Origin: an uncultured Candidatus Saccharibacteria bacterium
GTDB lineage: Bacteria; Patescibacteriota; Minisyncoccia; Phycocordibacterales; Zambryskibacteraceae
DNA: 64,000 bases
Assembly: GCA_964509605.1 (NCBI GenBank)
Contig: CAZDXF010000001.1
Location: 8,276 to 72,275 of the forward strand
Direction: 5' to 3'
Made by a program: the position numbers and the translations under genes. The stretch's first letter is position 1. Each line of letters opens with the position of its first letter. Of the stretch, positions 55,762 through 62,703 are shown in pieces. The notes beneath the pieces were generated by a model that saw only the letters and a program-made list of their open reading frames with translations, did not search any database and had not been told where the DNA came from.

Positions 55762-55962
55762 ATGACAGATTTAAGCCAGCTGAGCCTCTTGGCTCAGATT
55801 ATCAGTTGGCGGATTGATGAGGGCAAGTCGTGCGTTCACTGTGGCAGTCCTGCTTACGTGAACCCAGAACACGAAGACATTTGGGGTTGTCCGGAGTGTC
55901 TTTTTGTCACGGCATCCCACAATGTCTTTTTCAGGAATTCTGTCGTATCAACCACCCAGTAG
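55762..55962 (+). CDS. 66-aa Zn-ribbon protein (CxxC...CxxC), GC-elevated with SD
   Basis: SD AAGGGGA 5 nt upstream; CVHCGSPAYVNPEHEDIWGCPEC. Confidence 0.45.
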   Translation: MTDLSQLSLLAQIISWRIDEGKSCVHCGSPAYVNPEHEDIWGCPECLFVTASHNVFFRNSVVSTTQ

Positions 55963-55982
55963 TTTGGGTGGTTGTTGTTTTA
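55951..55982 (+). terminator. hairpin terminator
   Basis: ACCACCCA-gtagtt-TGGGTGGT followed by TGTTGTTTT. Confidence 0.6.
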
Positions 55983-57096: not shown

Positions 57097-57135
57097 TAAT
57101 CTGATAAACAAATTAAATTTGATATACTACTCTTT

Positions 57136-57963
57136 ATGGCTACAGAAACTCTAATTGTAAAAGCAAGTGGTAAAAAAGAGCCGTTTCAGGGAGAAAAACT
57201 CCAAAGTTCTCTTTTGAGGGCCGGTGCTCAAGACAAGGTTGCTGAAAATATAGTTAAACACATAGAAAACGAGATAAAAGATGGAATGTCTACATCCCAG
57301 ATCTACAAACACGCTTTTTTCCTGCTTGAAAAAGAGCTGAAGCCGGTTGCTCTTAGATATTCATTGCGCAGGGCAATTATGGACTTGGGGCCCTCGGGTT
57401 TTCCTTTTGAAGATTTTATAGCTTTTATCCTTGAAGAAAAAGGTTATGCCGTAAAGACCGGAGAAATTGTATTTGGCGGGTGTGTAGAGCATGAAGTTGA
57501 TGTTGTGGCTTGGAACGAAAATAAGCTCATTATGGCAGAAGCTAAATTTCACAATGAAATTGGTATTAAATCTGACTTAAAAGTGGCTCTCTACATAAAA
57601 GCTCGTTTTGATGATTTAAAAGAAGTTAAGCATCTCTATGGAAAGGAAAGGTATGTTGACGAATCTTGGCTTGTGACAAACACAAAATTTACAAACACCG
57701 CAATTCACTACGCAGAATGCAAAGGCCTCCAGCTTATTGGTTGGAACTATCCAAAAAAAGGAAACTTGCAAGACCTCATAGAGGATAGTGGTCTTCACCC
57801 AATCACATCTCTAACCTCTCTTACTGGCAGTCAAAAGAAACTTCTCTTATCTAAAGGAACTGTGTTGTGTAAACACATAAAAGACGATCCTGCGCTTTTG
57901 AAAGCTTTAGGAATGAATGATTTAAAAATAAAGACCGTCTTAGACGAAATAAACATACTTTAA
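57136..57963 (+). CDS. ATP-cone domain fused to Mrr-like PD-(D/E)xK nuclease domain
   Basis: N-terminus VKASGKKEPFQGEKL...YSLRRA is an ATP-cone. The middle region GYAV...EVDVVAWNENKLIMAEAKFH has the D...E-A-K catalytic pattern. Confidence 0.55.
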   Translation: MATETLIVKASGKKEPFQGEKLQSSLLRAGAQDKVAENIVKHIENEIKDGMSTSQIYKHAFFLLEKELKPVALRYSLRRAIMDLGPSGFPFEDFIAFILEEKGYAVKTGEIVFGGCVEHEVDVVAWNENKLIMAEAKFHNEIGIKSDLKVALYIKARFDDLKEVKHLYGKERYVDESWLVTNTKFTNTAIHYAECKGLQLIGWNYPKKGNLQDLIEDSGLHPITSLTSLTGSQKKLLLSKGTVLCKHIKDDPALLKALGMNDLKIKTVLDEINIL

Positions 57964-57970
57964 GAAGATA

Positions 57971-58768
57971 ATGAGTAAATATTACAATCCAAAAAGAAGT
58001 GAAAATTGGAATTATGGTGGAAAAAACTGGAGATTGTCTCGTTCTAAAATAGATTTATTTTTAGAGTGTAAGAGATGTTTTTATATTGATAATAAGCTAG
58101 GAACCGCAAGGCCGAAAGGATTTCCTTTCACATTAAATAGTGCGGTAGACAAGCTTTTAAAAAAGGAATTTGATATTCACAGGGCTCAAGAAACCACTCA
58201 TCCAATGATGGAAAGTTATGGTCTGGAAGCCGTTCCTTTTCAACATCCTAAAATGGATGAGTGGAGGGATGCTTTAAAAGGTGGGGCTCAATATGTTCAT
58301 CCGGAAACGGGGCTTTTAGTGACGGGGGCAGTTGATGATATTTGGATAGATAAAAATGGGGAATTGCTCATCGTTGATTATAAGGCCACTTCGAAAGAGG
58401 AAGAGGTGAATTTGGATGCGGAATGGCAAGACGGGTACAAAAAACAGATGGAAGTTTACCAGTGGCTTTTCAGAAATAATGGGTTCAAGGTTTCTGATAC
58501 AGGATATTTTGTGTATGTAAACGGTTTGACCGATAAAGAGTCATTTGATGGAAAATTGGAATTTGATGTAAAAATTATTCCTTATACAGGAAAAACAGAT
58601 TGGATAGAAAAAATTCTTATAGAAATTAAAAAAACTTTAGAGAGCGATACAATTCCGGAGCAATCTTTAGAGTGCGATTACTGTACTTACACAAATGCGG
58701 TTGGAAATCTTGATAAGAAAAAAGTTGAAAGACCAGACAAGGGAAACTTAAAAGGAACGCTTTTTTGA
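57971..58768 (+). CDS. Cas4/RecB-like PD-(D/E)xK nuclease with Cys clusters (standalone)
   Basis: N-terminal LECKRCFY, core DDIWIDKNGELLIVDYKAT, C-terminal ECDYCTY. Confidence 0.55.
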   Translation: MSKYYNPKRSENWNYGGKNWRLSRSKIDLFLECKRCFYIDNKLGTARPKGFPFTLNSAVDKLLKKEFDIHRAQETTHPMMESYGLEAVPFQHPKMDEWRDALKGGAQYVHPETGLLVTGAVDDIWIDKNGELLIVDYKATSKEEEVNLDAEWQDGYKKQMEVYQWLFRNNGFKVSDTGYFVYVNGLTDKESFDGKLEFDVKIIPYTGKTDWIEKILIEIKKTLESDTIPEQSLECDYCTYTNAVGNLDKKKVERPDKGNLKGTLF

Positions 58769-59361
58769 TGACAAAATTTGAAGAAATGAAAAAGATTCGG
58801 GACGAGCTCCTTGTTGGAGAAAATCTGCCTCTTTTTAAGTTTAGAAAAGAAAATGGTTATTTACCTGTAGTTGGAGAGGGAAGTCATGATGCCAAAATAC
58901 TTTTTGTTGGAGAAGCCCCTGGAGAGAATGAAGCGAAAACAGGAAAGCCTTTTTGTGGAAGAGCGGGTAAAATTTTAGATGTTTTGCTTAATCACATAGG
59001 TTTAAAAAGAGAAGAAGTTTACATAACTAATATTGTGAAAGACCGACCTCCAAAAAACAGAGATCCGATGCCTGACGAAATTTATGCCTACGCCCCATTT
59101 TTAAAAAAGCAAATAGAAATTATTCAGCCTAAAGTGGTCGCTACGCTTGGAAGACACTCTATGACTCACATTCTCAAGTTTTTTGCTTTAAAAGACAAAA
59201 TAGAGCCGATAAGCAAAATGCACGGAAGACTCCTTGAAGCCGATTCAGAGTTTTGTAAAGTCAAAATAGCAACACTTTACCATCCGGCTGTAGCCGTATA
59301 TGATCAAAGTAAACTGAGTGAACTTAAGAAGGATTTTGAAGTCATAAAAGCTTTTATTTAA
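58765..59361 (+). CDS. uracil-DNA glycosylase family 4
   Basis: GEGSHDAKILFVGEAPGENEAKTGKPFCGRAGKILD. Confidence 0.85.
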   Translation: MMTKFEEMKKIRDELLVGENLPLFKFRKENGYLPVVGEGSHDAKILFVGEAPGENEAKTGKPFCGRAGKILDVLLNHIGLKREEVYITNIVKDRPPKNRDPMPDEIYAYAPFLKKQIEIIQPKVVATLGRHSMTHILKFFALKDKIEPISKMHGRLLEADSEFCKVKIATLYHPAVAVYDQSKLSELKKDFEVIKAFI

Positions 59362-60719: not shown

Positions 60720-61034
60720 CAATATCAAAAAGAAGCCTTTTCTACCAGGATTATAAAATATGATCCCTCTTTTATATATTCAGCTCTAGGGTTAGCTGGA
60801 GAAAGTGGAGAAGTTGCAGAAAAAATAAAAAAAATTTTAAGAGATGATGGAGGGGTTGTAACGGAAGAAAAGAGAGAGGAAATAAAAAAAGAATTGGGAG
60901 ATGTTTTGTGGTACCTGTCTCAACTGTCAGCTGATTTGAATATAGAATTTAATGATGTGGCAATCTCTAATATAGAAAAAATAAAATCCAGAAAGGAGAG
61001 GGGGCAAACAAAAGGATCTGGTGATAATAGATAA
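60708..61034 (+). CDS. MazG-like nucleotide pyrophosphohydrolase
   Basis: GLAGESGEVAEKIKK...ELGDVLWYLSQLS. Confidence 0.75.
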   Translation: MDFNQYQKEAFSTRIIKYDPSFIYSALGLAGESGEVAEKIKKILRDDGGVVTEEKREEIKKELGDVLWYLSQLSADLNIEFNDVAISNIEKIKSRKERGQTKGSGDNR

Positions 61035-61035
61035 A

Positions 61036-62703
61036 ATGGAATCTTCAGAAATCAGAAAAAAATTTTGGGATTTTTTTGAAAAAAGAGGACACAAAATAGT
61101 GCCGTCGGCGTCTTTGGTACCACTAAACGATCCTTCCGTACTTTTCACTACAGCAGGAATGCAACAATTCAAACCTTATTACACAGGGTTGGGCGATCCG
61201 ATGAAAGATTTTGGTTCTTTAAACACGGTTTCAATCCAAAAATGTGTTAGAACTTCAGACATAGAGGAAGTAGGTGATGAAAGGCATCTGACTTTTTTTG
61301 AAATGTTGGGAAATTTTAGCTTTGGAGGATACTTCAAAAAAGAAGCGATTCAGTACGGTTACGATTTTATTGTTAAAGAGATGGGATTGAAAATTGATTA
61401 TGTGTCCGTGTTTGAGGGCGACAACAATATCCCCGAAGACAAAGAGTCAGAAGAAATCTGGAAATCAATTGATCCGAGTCTTGAAATAAAGAAATTTGGC
61501 AGAGAAGATAATTTTTGGGGACCGACTGGAGATGAGGGGCCGTGTGGGCCAACGACAGAGATTTATGTGGATGGAATTGAAGTTTGGAATATTGTTTTCA
61601 ATCAATATTTTCAAAATAAAGACAAAACCTTAAAAAATCTTGAAAGATTTGGGGTGGATACCGGTATGGGCCTTGAGAGACTCGCTCTAGTAAGTCAGTT
61701 TCCTGGAAAAGCAGGTGAAAAAACAGTTTTTGAAACCGATTTGTTTTCAAAAATATTAGAAATTCTTCCGCAAGAAATACCAGAAAGAAAAAAAAGGATT
61801 TTGGCAGATCACTCAAGAGCAATTGCCTTTATGATAAGCGACGGAGTCAGGCCTTCTAACAGAGGAGCCGGATACATACTTAGAAGAATCTTGCGAAGAT
61901 TGCTCGCTCAATTTGAATTTGAGCACATTAAATTAGCATTAGATTGGGTGATTCCAAAATATAATCAAATTTACAAAGAACTAGACAGAAATTTGATCTG
62001 GGAAGTTTTAGACAGAGAATGGAGTCAATTTATAGTAGCTCTTAATACCGGAGTAAAAGAATTGAATAAGTTAGATTCTCTTGATTCTAAAAAAGCTTTT
62101 GAACTCTACAGCACTTATGGTCTTCCGTTTGATGTAATGAAAGACAGGTTTCCCAATCTTGATATCAAAGAATTTGAAAAAGAATTTAATAGACACCAAG
62201 AAATTTCTAGAACAGGTTTGGAGCAAAAATTTAAAGGTGGATTGGCAAATACGGAAGAAAAAACAGTTCGTCTGCACACAGCACACCACCTTCTTTTGTC
62301 CGCTCTTCAAGAGGTTTTAGGGAAGAATGTAAAACAAAAAGGTAGTAATATAAATGAGGAGAGACTAAGAATTGATTTTTCTTTTGATAGAAAAATGACA
62401 TCCGAAGAAATTCAAAAAGTAGAGGAAATAGTAAATAAAAACATCACTTCTGGTCTTGAAGTTGTGAGAAAAGAAATGAAGAGGGAGGAGGCAGAGAAAA
62501 TTGGAGCCGAAATGGAGTTCGGTGCCAAATATCCAGAAACAGTTTCTGTGTATTTTATAACTGATAAGGACGGCAATGTAATATCAAAAGAGTTTTGTGG
62601 GGGTCCGCATGTAGAAAACACTTCTGAATTAGGAATTTTCAAAGTAAAAAAAGAAGAAGCTGTCGCTTCTGGAATAAGAAGAATAAAAGCTGTTCTTGAA
62701 TAA
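61036..62703 (+). CDS. alaS: alanyl-tRNA synthetase (short form, catalytic + tRNA-recognition region)
   Basis: HKIVPSASLVP.NDPSVLFTTAGMQQFK, FEMLGNFSFGGYFK. Confidence 0.85.
   Translation: MESSEIRKKFWDFFEKRGHKIVPSASLVPLNDPSVLFTTAGMQQFKPYYTGLGDPMKDFGSLNTVSIQKCVRTSDIEEVGDERHLTFFEMLGNFSFGGYFKKEAIQYGYDFIVKEMGLKIDYVSVFEGDNNIPEDKESEEIWKSIDPSLEIKKFGREDNFWGPTGDEGPCGPTTEIYVDGIEVWNIVFNQYFQNKDKTLKNLERFGVDTGMGLERLALVSQFPGKAGEKTVFETDLFSKILEILPQEIPERKKRILADHSRAIAFMISDGVRPSNRGAGYILRRILRRLLAQFEFEHIKLALDWVIPKYNQIYKELDRNLIWEVLDREWSQFIVALNTGVKELNKLDSLDSKKAFELYSTYGLPFDVMKDRFPNLDIKEFEKEFNRHQEISRTGLEQKFKGGLANTEEKTVRLHTAHHLLLSALQEVLGKNVKQKGSNINEERLRIDFSFDRKMTSEEIQKVEEIVNKNITSGLEVVRKEMKREEAEKIGAEMEFGAKYPETVSVYFITDKDGNVISKEFCGGPHVENTSELGIFKVKKEEAVASGIRRIKAVLE

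Follow-up and report, generated by a model that had tools for sequence, protein, structure and literature searches.

The subject of this study was a 64-kb stretch of DNA (64,000 nucleotides of contig CAZDXF010000001.1, assembly GCA_964509605.1; hereafter the window) from an uncultured Candidatus Saccharibacteria bacterium placed in the Patescibacteriota, and in particular three tightly packed co-directional open reading frames (ORFs) within positions 57136–59361. ORF1 encodes an ATP-cone fused to a PD-(D/E)XK nuclease, and this fusion represents a large, highly conserved and widespread bacterial family. The domain architecture, the intact catalytic and adenine-contact residues, the purifying selection, the wide distribution and two conserved gene contexts of the family were observed. 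The reading that we tentatively prefer, with a rough probability of 0.45, is that ORF1 is an adenine-nucleotide-gated housekeeping endonuclease, which would initiate a regulated turnover of nucleic acids, tied to nucleotide salvage and to the control of nucleotide pools. The three ORFs were as follows.

57136–57963, + strand: ORF1, 275 aa; ATP-cone, AF1548-type PD-(D/E)XK nuclease and AF1548-like C-terminal domain
57971–58768, + strand: ORF2, 265 aa; standalone RecB/Cas4-superfamily exonuclease-like protein
58768–59361, + strand: ORF3, 197 aa with the ATG as start (198 aa if read from a TTG at 58765); family-4 uracil-DNA glycosylase (UDG)

Domain Architecture of ORF1

The N-terminal part of ORF1 (residues 7–59) scored 30.4 bits with the ATP-cone model PF03477, whose gathering cut-off is 25.8, and residues 88–201 scored 24.2 bits with the Mrr_cat model PF04471, whose cut-off is 21. 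These two domains had been proposed in an initial annotation made from the letters alone, and both were found above their thresholds. Furthermore, both models matched all 23 aligned homologues (best ATP-cone E-value 2.4e-9), and PF22357 (AF1548-like_C) matched 10 of the 23. This third, C-terminal domain was absent from the initial annotation.

Residues 94–271 aligned with AF1548 from Archaeoglobus fulgidus (PDB 1Y88) at an E-value of 8e-30 in phmmer. The AlphaFold model of ORF1 had a pLDDT of 86.4, and 1Y88 ranked first in the Foldseek search with this model (E 6e-14, TM 0.73 on the target). The N-terminus was matched to the ATP-cones of NrdR (9fxk, 7p37 and 9a6n) with a root-mean-square deviation of 1.6–3.2 Å over 71–79 residues and a probability of 1.0; the model possessed a β-hairpin lid (strands E6–8 and E14–16) followed by helices, which is the cone fold. 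The nuclease core resembled ligand-gated or modification-dependent PD-(D/E)XK nucleases, namely Cdn1, VC1899, Can2 and MspJI. In the C-terminal domain, the 1Y88 alignment reached residue 271 and helices were present in the AlphaFold model. Judged by these alignments, AF1548 is the closest relative of ORF1 by descent. It shares the D/E/K triad and the C-terminal domain with ORF1, but it has no ATP-cone, the LGPSGFPFE region of ORF1 is not part of the alignment, and, as a structural-genomics protein, AF1548 offers no functional anchor.

Conserved Residues

Conservation was counted over 151 sequences, namely ORF1 and 150 representatives of clusters at 50% identity (38–52% identity). The parts of ORF1 and their conserved residues were as follows.

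57148–57381, + strand: ATP-cone domain, residues ~5–82; conserved K9, G12, E15, F17, K21, L22, T53 and Y75
57382–57411, + strand: linker LGPSGFPFE, residues 84–92; G85, G88, F91 and E92 conserved in 150–151 of 151
57412–57750, + strand: PD-(D/E)XK core, residues ~93–205; E120, D122, E135 and K137, also C116, H119, R157, N182 and C195
57751–57963, + strand: C-terminal helical domain (AF1548-like_C, PF22357), residues ~206–275, and stop codon

D122, E135, K137, R157, F91 and E92 were found in 151/151 sequences, and E120, N182, G85 and G88 in 150/151. Moreover, E120, D122, E135 and K137 were invariant in two other alignments of the family as well. By offset mapping, D122, E135 and K137 of ORF1 corresponded to D38, E51 and K53 of AF1548, which are the catalytic residues predicted for that protein (PMC1821046). 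From the spacing E92-30-D122-13-E135-x-K137 alone, E92 is a candidate for the acidic residue that a helix contributes to the PD-(D/E)XK site.

In E. coli NrdR, the adenine is contacted by Val51, Lys53, Glu59, Pro60, Phe61, Lys65 and Leu66 (bioRxiv 10.1101/2025.03.28.645925). In the phmmer alignment to residues 51–95 of that protein, these contacts fell, in order, on I7, K9, E15, P16, F17, K21 and L22 of ORF1. Across the 151 sequences, the conserved cone residues were counted as K9 146, G12 148, F/Y17 147, K/R21 147, T/S53 146 and Y/F75 149; strict conservation of K9, G12, F17, K21, T53 and Y75 held in 134–148 sequences, and in 146–149 when Y17, R21, S53 and F75 were allowed. As judged from these alignments, the sensor and the effector are both under purifying selection. 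In addition, the invariance of the LGPSGFPFE linker suggests that it couples the cone and the nuclease functionally.

A pattern of conserved cysteine and histidine residues was also seen in the nuclease and C-terminal domains. C116 was kept in 144/151 sequences, H119 in 145/151 and C195 in 144/151, while C245 was present in 105/151 and C225 in 62/151 (ORF1 itself has Ser at 225). From this pattern, the two domains may contain a metal or redox site. The cysteine codons of ORF1 were located as follows.

57481–57483: C116
57718–57720: C195
57868–57870: C245

Family Size and Distribution

In total, 6,543 clusters at 90% identity matched ORF1. At 50% identity the number of matching clusters was 1,216, of which 460 had E < 1e-30, and the best 150 of them were nearly all full length at ~275–290 aa. 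A pattern scan of species-representative genomes gave at least 597 species genomes with confirmed loci of the family. The initial annotation had called the architecture unusual, a description that, if taken to mean rare, does not agree with these numbers. The identity was 58–90% within Paceibacteria-type genomes, full-length homologues with 41–47% identity were found in Pontibacter and Criblamydia, and thousands more homologues occurred in Bacteroidota-type sequences.

The fusion architecture is already catalogued in databases, where the members are named "ATP cone domain-containing protein", "restriction endonuclease" or "ATPase", and some are called "Holliday junction resolvase" by JGI; no published description of the fusion, its operon or its biochemistry was found. 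The only relevant literature item was the 2007 GOS paper, in which AF1548 was predicted to be a restriction-like nuclease (PMC1821046).

Many of the closest genomes, like the present one, are titled "uncultured Candidatus Saccharibacteria bacterium" (for example, those of loci L001, L003 and L005). The relatives with this title shared the gene order and 50–70% protein identity with metagenome-assembled genomes of Paceibacteria/Parcubacteria, and the taxonomic labels in these titles appear to be generic or wrong.

Gene Neighborhood in Patescibacteria

In all 80 retrieved Patescibacteria loci, the ORF1 family occupied the same slot, in the order leuS, sigma-like gene, DUF gene, mltG, mnmA, ATP-cone nuclease and, further on, alaS. 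An unbiased clustering of neighbors was performed on 84 Patescibacteria loci including this window. The downstream same-strand neighbors were a family-4 UDG (UDG4) in 48 of the 84, a Cas4-like gene in 36, a PF01035 alkyltransferase-like (ATL) gene in 15, MgtC in 15, and an HD_3/YfbR-like 5′-deoxynucleotidase in 14. This neighborhood is therefore, by the genes it holds, enriched in functions of DNA and deoxynucleotide hygiene. The MgtC and YfbR-like genes each came right after the ATP-cone nuclease gene in ~14–15 loci (e.g., L004 6846–7331; L022 2688–3323).

The trio was counted in those Patescibacteria loci, 63 in number, whose downstream sequence was 3 kb or longer. Among these, the Cas4-like gene was present in 26 (directly adjacent in 19) and UDG4 in 41; 52 loci had either partner, and 15 had both. 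The three genes had been presented initially as a trio; with both partners in 15/63 loci, and entirely different partners in other phyla, they are not a fixed unit. In locus L044, UDG4 was located upstream of the ATP-cone nuclease. In the relatives L167 and L168, an Exo_endo_phos enzyme and a PF01035 ATL-like gene adjoined the Cas4-like gene. A family-1 (Ung-type, GQDPYH) UDG replaced the family-4 enzyme in the same two loci (L167 8132–8809, − strand; L168 6079–6753).

These neighbors bear on the alternative that survives best, in which ORF1 is a DNA-repair or recombination endonuclease, either an Hjc-like junction or flap resolvase or an enzyme of lesion incision. It would act with the Cas4-like exonuclease, the UDG, ATL and, as seen in relatives, an ExoIII-like enzyme, and the cone would tune its activity to the availability of deoxynucleoside triphosphates (dNTPs). 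Repair genes do cluster downstream of the nuclease in Patescibacteria, with a Cas4-like gene or UDG4 in the flank of 52 of the 63 loci; the genes in L044 stayed together despite rearrangement, and the exchange of one UDG family for another in L167 and L168 points in the same direction, as does the JGI name "Holliday junction resolvase" for some members. Weak matches to the Hjc profile were obtained as well (ORF1 E 0.08; 2 of the 23 homologues at E ≤ 0.01), and the E-30-D-13-E-x-K spacing of ORF1 is like that of Sso Hjc. However, the score of ORF1 with the Hjc model (PF01870) was 13.3 bits, below the threshold of 21.1, and membership of that family was rejected. Furthermore, the full trio was limited to 15 of the 63 loci, the surroundings are a syntenic housekeeping block whose linkage is possibly historical, and the partners outside Patescibacteria are β-CASP, phosphorylase and ribose-phosphate pyrophosphokinase genes rather than repair genes. 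On balance, we consider a role in repair somewhat unlikely.

Gene Neighborhood Outside Patescibacteria

A second context was found in other phyla, where the gene for the ATP-cone nuclease stands at the head of an operon. Three genes came after it in Pontibacter actiniarum (Bacteroidota) and Criblamydia sequanensis (Chlamydiota): one for a hydrolase of the metallo-β-lactamase (MBL) fold, one for a member of the "thymidine phosphorylase family" and one for a ribose-phosphate pyrophosphokinase. The MBL gene of Criblamydia overlapped the nuclease gene by 4 nt. A Cyclobacterium-labelled TARA contig carried the same operon together with PPK2 and a P-type ATPase. The MBL protein possessed Beta-Casp and RMMBL domains and was related to aCPSF1 and Cas14. 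The operon phosphorylase passed TIGR02645 (589 bits against 434.6), while its score with the AMP-phosphorylase model TIGR03327 was 480 bits against a cut-off of 535. The kinase resembling phosphoribosyl pyrophosphate (PRPP) synthetase passed PRK07199.

The survey outside Patescibacteria covered 80 metagenome loci of the Pontibacter/Criblamydia-type subfamily. The β-CASP gene was present in 38 of the 62 loci with enough downstream DNA, with its start within 400 nt in 30, and the operon phosphorylase was present in 17 of 45 metagenome loci. Other co-directional neighbors were P-type ATPases (40/79), Usp (19), GAPDH-like (15) and AAA_28/dNK-like kinase (15) genes.

Two features were common to the contexts. 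First, the nuclease is intact and is joined to a conserved, putative sensor of adenine nucleotides. Second, the gene next in line encodes another nuclease, which is β-CASP in Bacteroidota and Chlamydiota and RecB/Cas4-like in Patescibacteria, and enzymes of (deoxy)nucleotide metabolism follow too: phosphorylase, ribose-phosphate pyrophosphokinase, PPK2 and kinase in the former, and 5′-deoxynucleotidase, MazG and UDG in Patescibacteria. In addition, MgtC and the 5′-deoxynucleotidase in Patescibacteria, and the P-type ATPase and Usp genes in other phyla, hint at a recurring theme of ATP, Mg2+ or stress.

Proposed Function of ORF1

In the preferred reading of ORF1 as a gated housekeeping endonuclease, the N-terminal ATP-cone would bind ATP, possibly dATP. 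The nucleotide-bound cone would then change the oligomeric or conformational state of the protein, as in ribonucleotide reductase (RNR) and NrdR, and the switch would be transmitted via the LGPSGFPFE linker, so that the PD-(D/E)XK site (E120/D122/E135/K137) would become active or inactive. The nucleic acid would be held in part by the C-terminal AF1548-like helical domain. The nuclease would make the first cuts of DNA or RNA, and the products would feed salvage and pool homeostasis. This role in turnover and salvage is proposed because of the gene neighborhoods; nucleotide binding, the direction of regulation, the choice between DNA and RNA as a substrate and the physiological role are all predictions from sequence and context. 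The nucleotide-sensing control of a nuclease that the initial annotation had put forward is upheld as the most reasonable interpretation of the conserved adenine-contact residues and the invariant catalytic residues, with the function itself standing as a prediction.

Two known systems help to picture such a protein. The activity sites of RNR and the cone of NrdR are like the cone of ORF1 in fold, in a profile score above threshold and in the adenine-contact residues, and a nucleotide-dependent oligomeric switching would be expected for ORF1 by the same token; the difference is in the output domain, which is a nuclease in ORF1, a Zn-ribbon DNA binder in NrdR and a reductase in RNR. Can2, Card1 (VC1899-like) and Cdn1 also combine an N-terminal sensor with a similar PD-(D/E)XK core (Foldseek E 4e-4 to 3e-3), and the analogy to them is one of working principle. 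However, only the nuclease core aligned (133–144 columns), the sensor of ORF1 is an ATP-cone and not a CARF or SAVED domain, its ligand is presumably a primary metabolite and not a cyclic oligoadenylate, and its context is housekeeping rather than CRISPR or defense.

A bolder reading was also considered, in which ORF1 is a "self-nuclease" gated by energy charge or dATP. Upon a change in the level of adenine nucleotides, it would expose cellular RNA or DNA to the partner exonuclease (β-CASP in Bacteroidota and Chlamydiota, or RecB/Cas4-like in Patescibacteria), and the products would pass to the AMP-phosphorylase-like, PRPP-synthetase-like and PPK2 enzymes, which together would form a regulated module of catabolism from nucleic acid to nucleotide and pentose. 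Such a module appears to be linked to stress, ion and Mg2+ genes (Usp, P-type ATPases and MgtC). This reading is speculative, and we think it unlikely; if true, it would be a near-universal core function in the nucleotide-auxotrophic Patescibacteria.

Several observations weigh against the preferred reading. The two contexts differ: the Cas4-like gene and UDG4 were found in 0 of the 80 loci outside Patescibacteria, and the MBL, thymidine phosphorylase and ribose-phosphate pyrophosphokinase genes were absent from the window and from the 80 Patescibacteria loci. In some Bacteroidota, namely Sporocytophaga and Flavobacterium, the gene was in neither context. Ion pumps and stress proteins also occurred in the clusters outside Patescibacteria, which makes salvage one reading of these clusters only, and the adjacency in Patescibacteria may be inherited gene order within a block of general synteny and not functional coupling. 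Moreover, the assignment of DNA or RNA as the substrate of ORF1 is indirect, the ATP-cone match is modest in length and score (see below), and the literature on the ATP-cone and nuclease fusion, on AF1548-like/PF22357 proteins and on the operon yielded no experiment with a member of the family.

To our knowledge, what is understood of ATP-cones is limited to their role as ATP/dATP switches in ribonucleotide reductases and NrdR. A nuclease under such a switch would carry the same logic of regulation over from the synthesis of dNTPs to the breakdown of nucleic acids. As is commonly reported, Paceibacteria do not make nucleotides de novo. The ORF1 family is among the better conserved proteins of this class and recurs in Bacteroidota and Chlamydiota beside an AMP-phosphorylase-like salvage operon. 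Therefore, the family would be a testable entry to the balance of nucleotide pools, repair and stress survival, and culturable hosts with orthologues are available in Pontibacter, Sporocytophaga and Flavobacterium.

Quite improbable, in our view, is the possibility that the cone is a degenerate module with a structural or oligomerization role that has lost nucleotide binding, or binds another ligand, so that ORF1 would either cut constitutively or bind nucleic acid without catalysis. The Pfam match was partial (model positions 3–62 of 88) and lay 4.6 bits above the threshold, the profile matches to the ATP-cones in the PDB were weak (E 0.0025–0.03), and the Arg of the "KR" motif in the lid is replaced by Ala, Ser or Thr in the family, with Ala10 in ORF1 itself. 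Against this, the residues aligned with the adenine pocket of NrdR were conserved, and in the phmmer alignment the "R" position is occupied by Ser in E. coli NrdR itself; for this reason, Ala at position 10 does not look disqualifying. A non-catalytic role is unlikely because the catalytic residues were kept in 150–151 of the 151 sequences.

The weakest alternative is that ORF1 is a type IV (Mrr-like) restriction or anti-phage nuclease whose cone senses a change in the nucleotide pool induced by infection. The Mrr_cat match, the name "restriction endonuclease" given to many members by NCBI and JGI, one weak PADLOC match (PDC-S02, E 3e-5) and the resemblance of the core to the defense effectors Can2, Cdn1, MspJI, SduA and Avs4 are in its favor. 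It was rejected as very improbable because the gene sits in a fixed slot among tRNA-synthetase, MnmA and MltG genes (80/80 loci) with no methyltransferase or defense neighborhood, because tblastn detected no homologue among 50,697 phage records and matched just two plasmid records, because the PADLOC match was weak, and because the viral structures compared with the ORF1 model matched the generic nuclease fold or the RNR cones separately, with no full-length analogue. Furthermore, the identity of 58–90% across the whole class and the near-invariant residues across phyla are atypical of defense genes. Compared with Mrr and other type IV enzymes, which the catalytic domain of ORF1 resembles through PF04471, ORF1 has an ATP-cone in place of the N-terminal DNA-recognition domain and is much more strongly conserved. 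The Mrr or restriction label of the initial annotation thus holds for the fold, while context and conservation are contrary to it as a function.

ORF2 and ORF3

ORF2 matched PDDEXK_1 with 52.6 bits against a cut-off of 22 and has four invariant cysteines, which agrees with its initial description as a standalone Cas4/RecB-like nuclease with a Cys cluster. The family is very large, with at least 8,000 candidates. Its invariant positions were C33xxC36 and C235xxC238 (four Cys, 2+2), D122/D136-Y-K138 and Q159xxxY163. No match to the PDB was obtained by sequence profile; the AlphaFold model (pLDDT 77.9) was matched by Foldseek to RecE, Cas4 SSO0001, AdnAB, EXO5, MGME1 and AddB.

The Cas4 models were tried and scored below their thresholds (PF01930 17.2 against 22.7 bits; TIGR00372 28.4 against 65), so ORF2 was not accepted as a Cas4. 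No CRISPR-like array was found in the 64-kb window, and the neighbors are housekeeping and repair genes; a CRISPR link of ORF2 was rejected on these grounds, in agreement with the earlier remark that CRISPR/cas genes are not nearby. By its profile scores, ORF2 is Cas4-like at the superfamily level and is not a Cas4. It resembles the Cas4/AddB/RecB-family nucleases in the PDDEXK_1 match, the RecB motifs, the four cysteines and the Foldseek matches, which include type I-C Cas4. The Cys cluster of Cas4 and AddB is composed of one N-terminal and three C-terminal cysteines (C…CxxC(x5)C). In contrast, the arrangement in ORF2 is CxxC…CxxC, and ORF2 has an [ST]LF tail and neither cas genes nor an array beside it. 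This tail is a conserved [ST]-L-F at the C-terminus (residues 263–265) after a variable linker of low pLDDT. It looks like a short docking motif, and a partner of the β-clamp type would be a guess.

ORF3 passed TIGR00758 (UDG family 4) with 194.7 bits against 125.3, as expected from the initial annotation, and its closest solved structure was the UDG of S. tokodaii (4zbx, E 6e-43). The four cysteines of 4zbx, which we take to be the ligands of its [4Fe-4S] cluster, were aligned with G18, L21, D93 and Y109 of ORF3, none of which is Cys. ORF3 thus differs from other family-4 UDGs in that it passes the family model without any of the four putative Fe-S ligands. Furthermore, no Cys was found at these four positions in 46/46 orthologues from Patescibacteria loci. 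This suggests that ORF3 and its orthologues form a cluster-free clade of family-4 UDGs.

Locus Layout and Other Features

The window was AT-rich (~35% GC), and nearly all of its genes were on the + strand. The source annotation gives none of its proteins a name. The gap between ORF1 and ORF2 was 7 nt, and the stop codon of ORF2 overlapped the first ATG of ORF3 in the sequence TGATG; the ATG at 58768 is the most likely start of ORF3. MazG was located 1.3 kb downstream. The flanking genes, assigned by Pfam, and a promoter-like site were as follows.

Upstream of ORF1: LeuRS, Sigma70_r4/HARE-HTH protein, 413-aa protein with no Pfam assignment, YceG/MltG, MnmA
Downstream of the trio: M29 aminopeptidase, small MazG, short AlaRS, 393-aa protein with no Pfam assignment
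57101–57128, + strand: promoter-like site from a consensus scan, CTGATA-16 nt-TATACT, −10 element TG-extended; the ORF1 ATG follows after 7 nt

The number of sites from the consensus scan was not above the shuffled expectation, which makes the promoter-like site a weak one. No Shine–Dalgarno sequence was visible before the ORF1 ATG, which suggests that the transcript of ORF1–ORF3 may be leaderless. No RNA genes or structured elements were found near the trio, and the Rfam matches in the window were three distant tRNAs only.

The 270 nt that separate mltG from mnmA contain, at 55949–55974, a strong hairpin resembling a terminator, with an 11-bp stem, 6 GC pairs and a T-rich tail. Because this hairpin overlaps the listed TTG start of mnmA, the true start is probably an internal Met (…LRMKKIKVF…). 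In addition, the alanyl-tRNA synthetase at 61021–62703 was only 560 aa long; it covered positions 1–451 of 552 of the tRNA-synt_2c model, followed by tRNA_SAD, and the tblastn matches to the alaS gene in related loci had similar spans (~1.1–2.0 kb).

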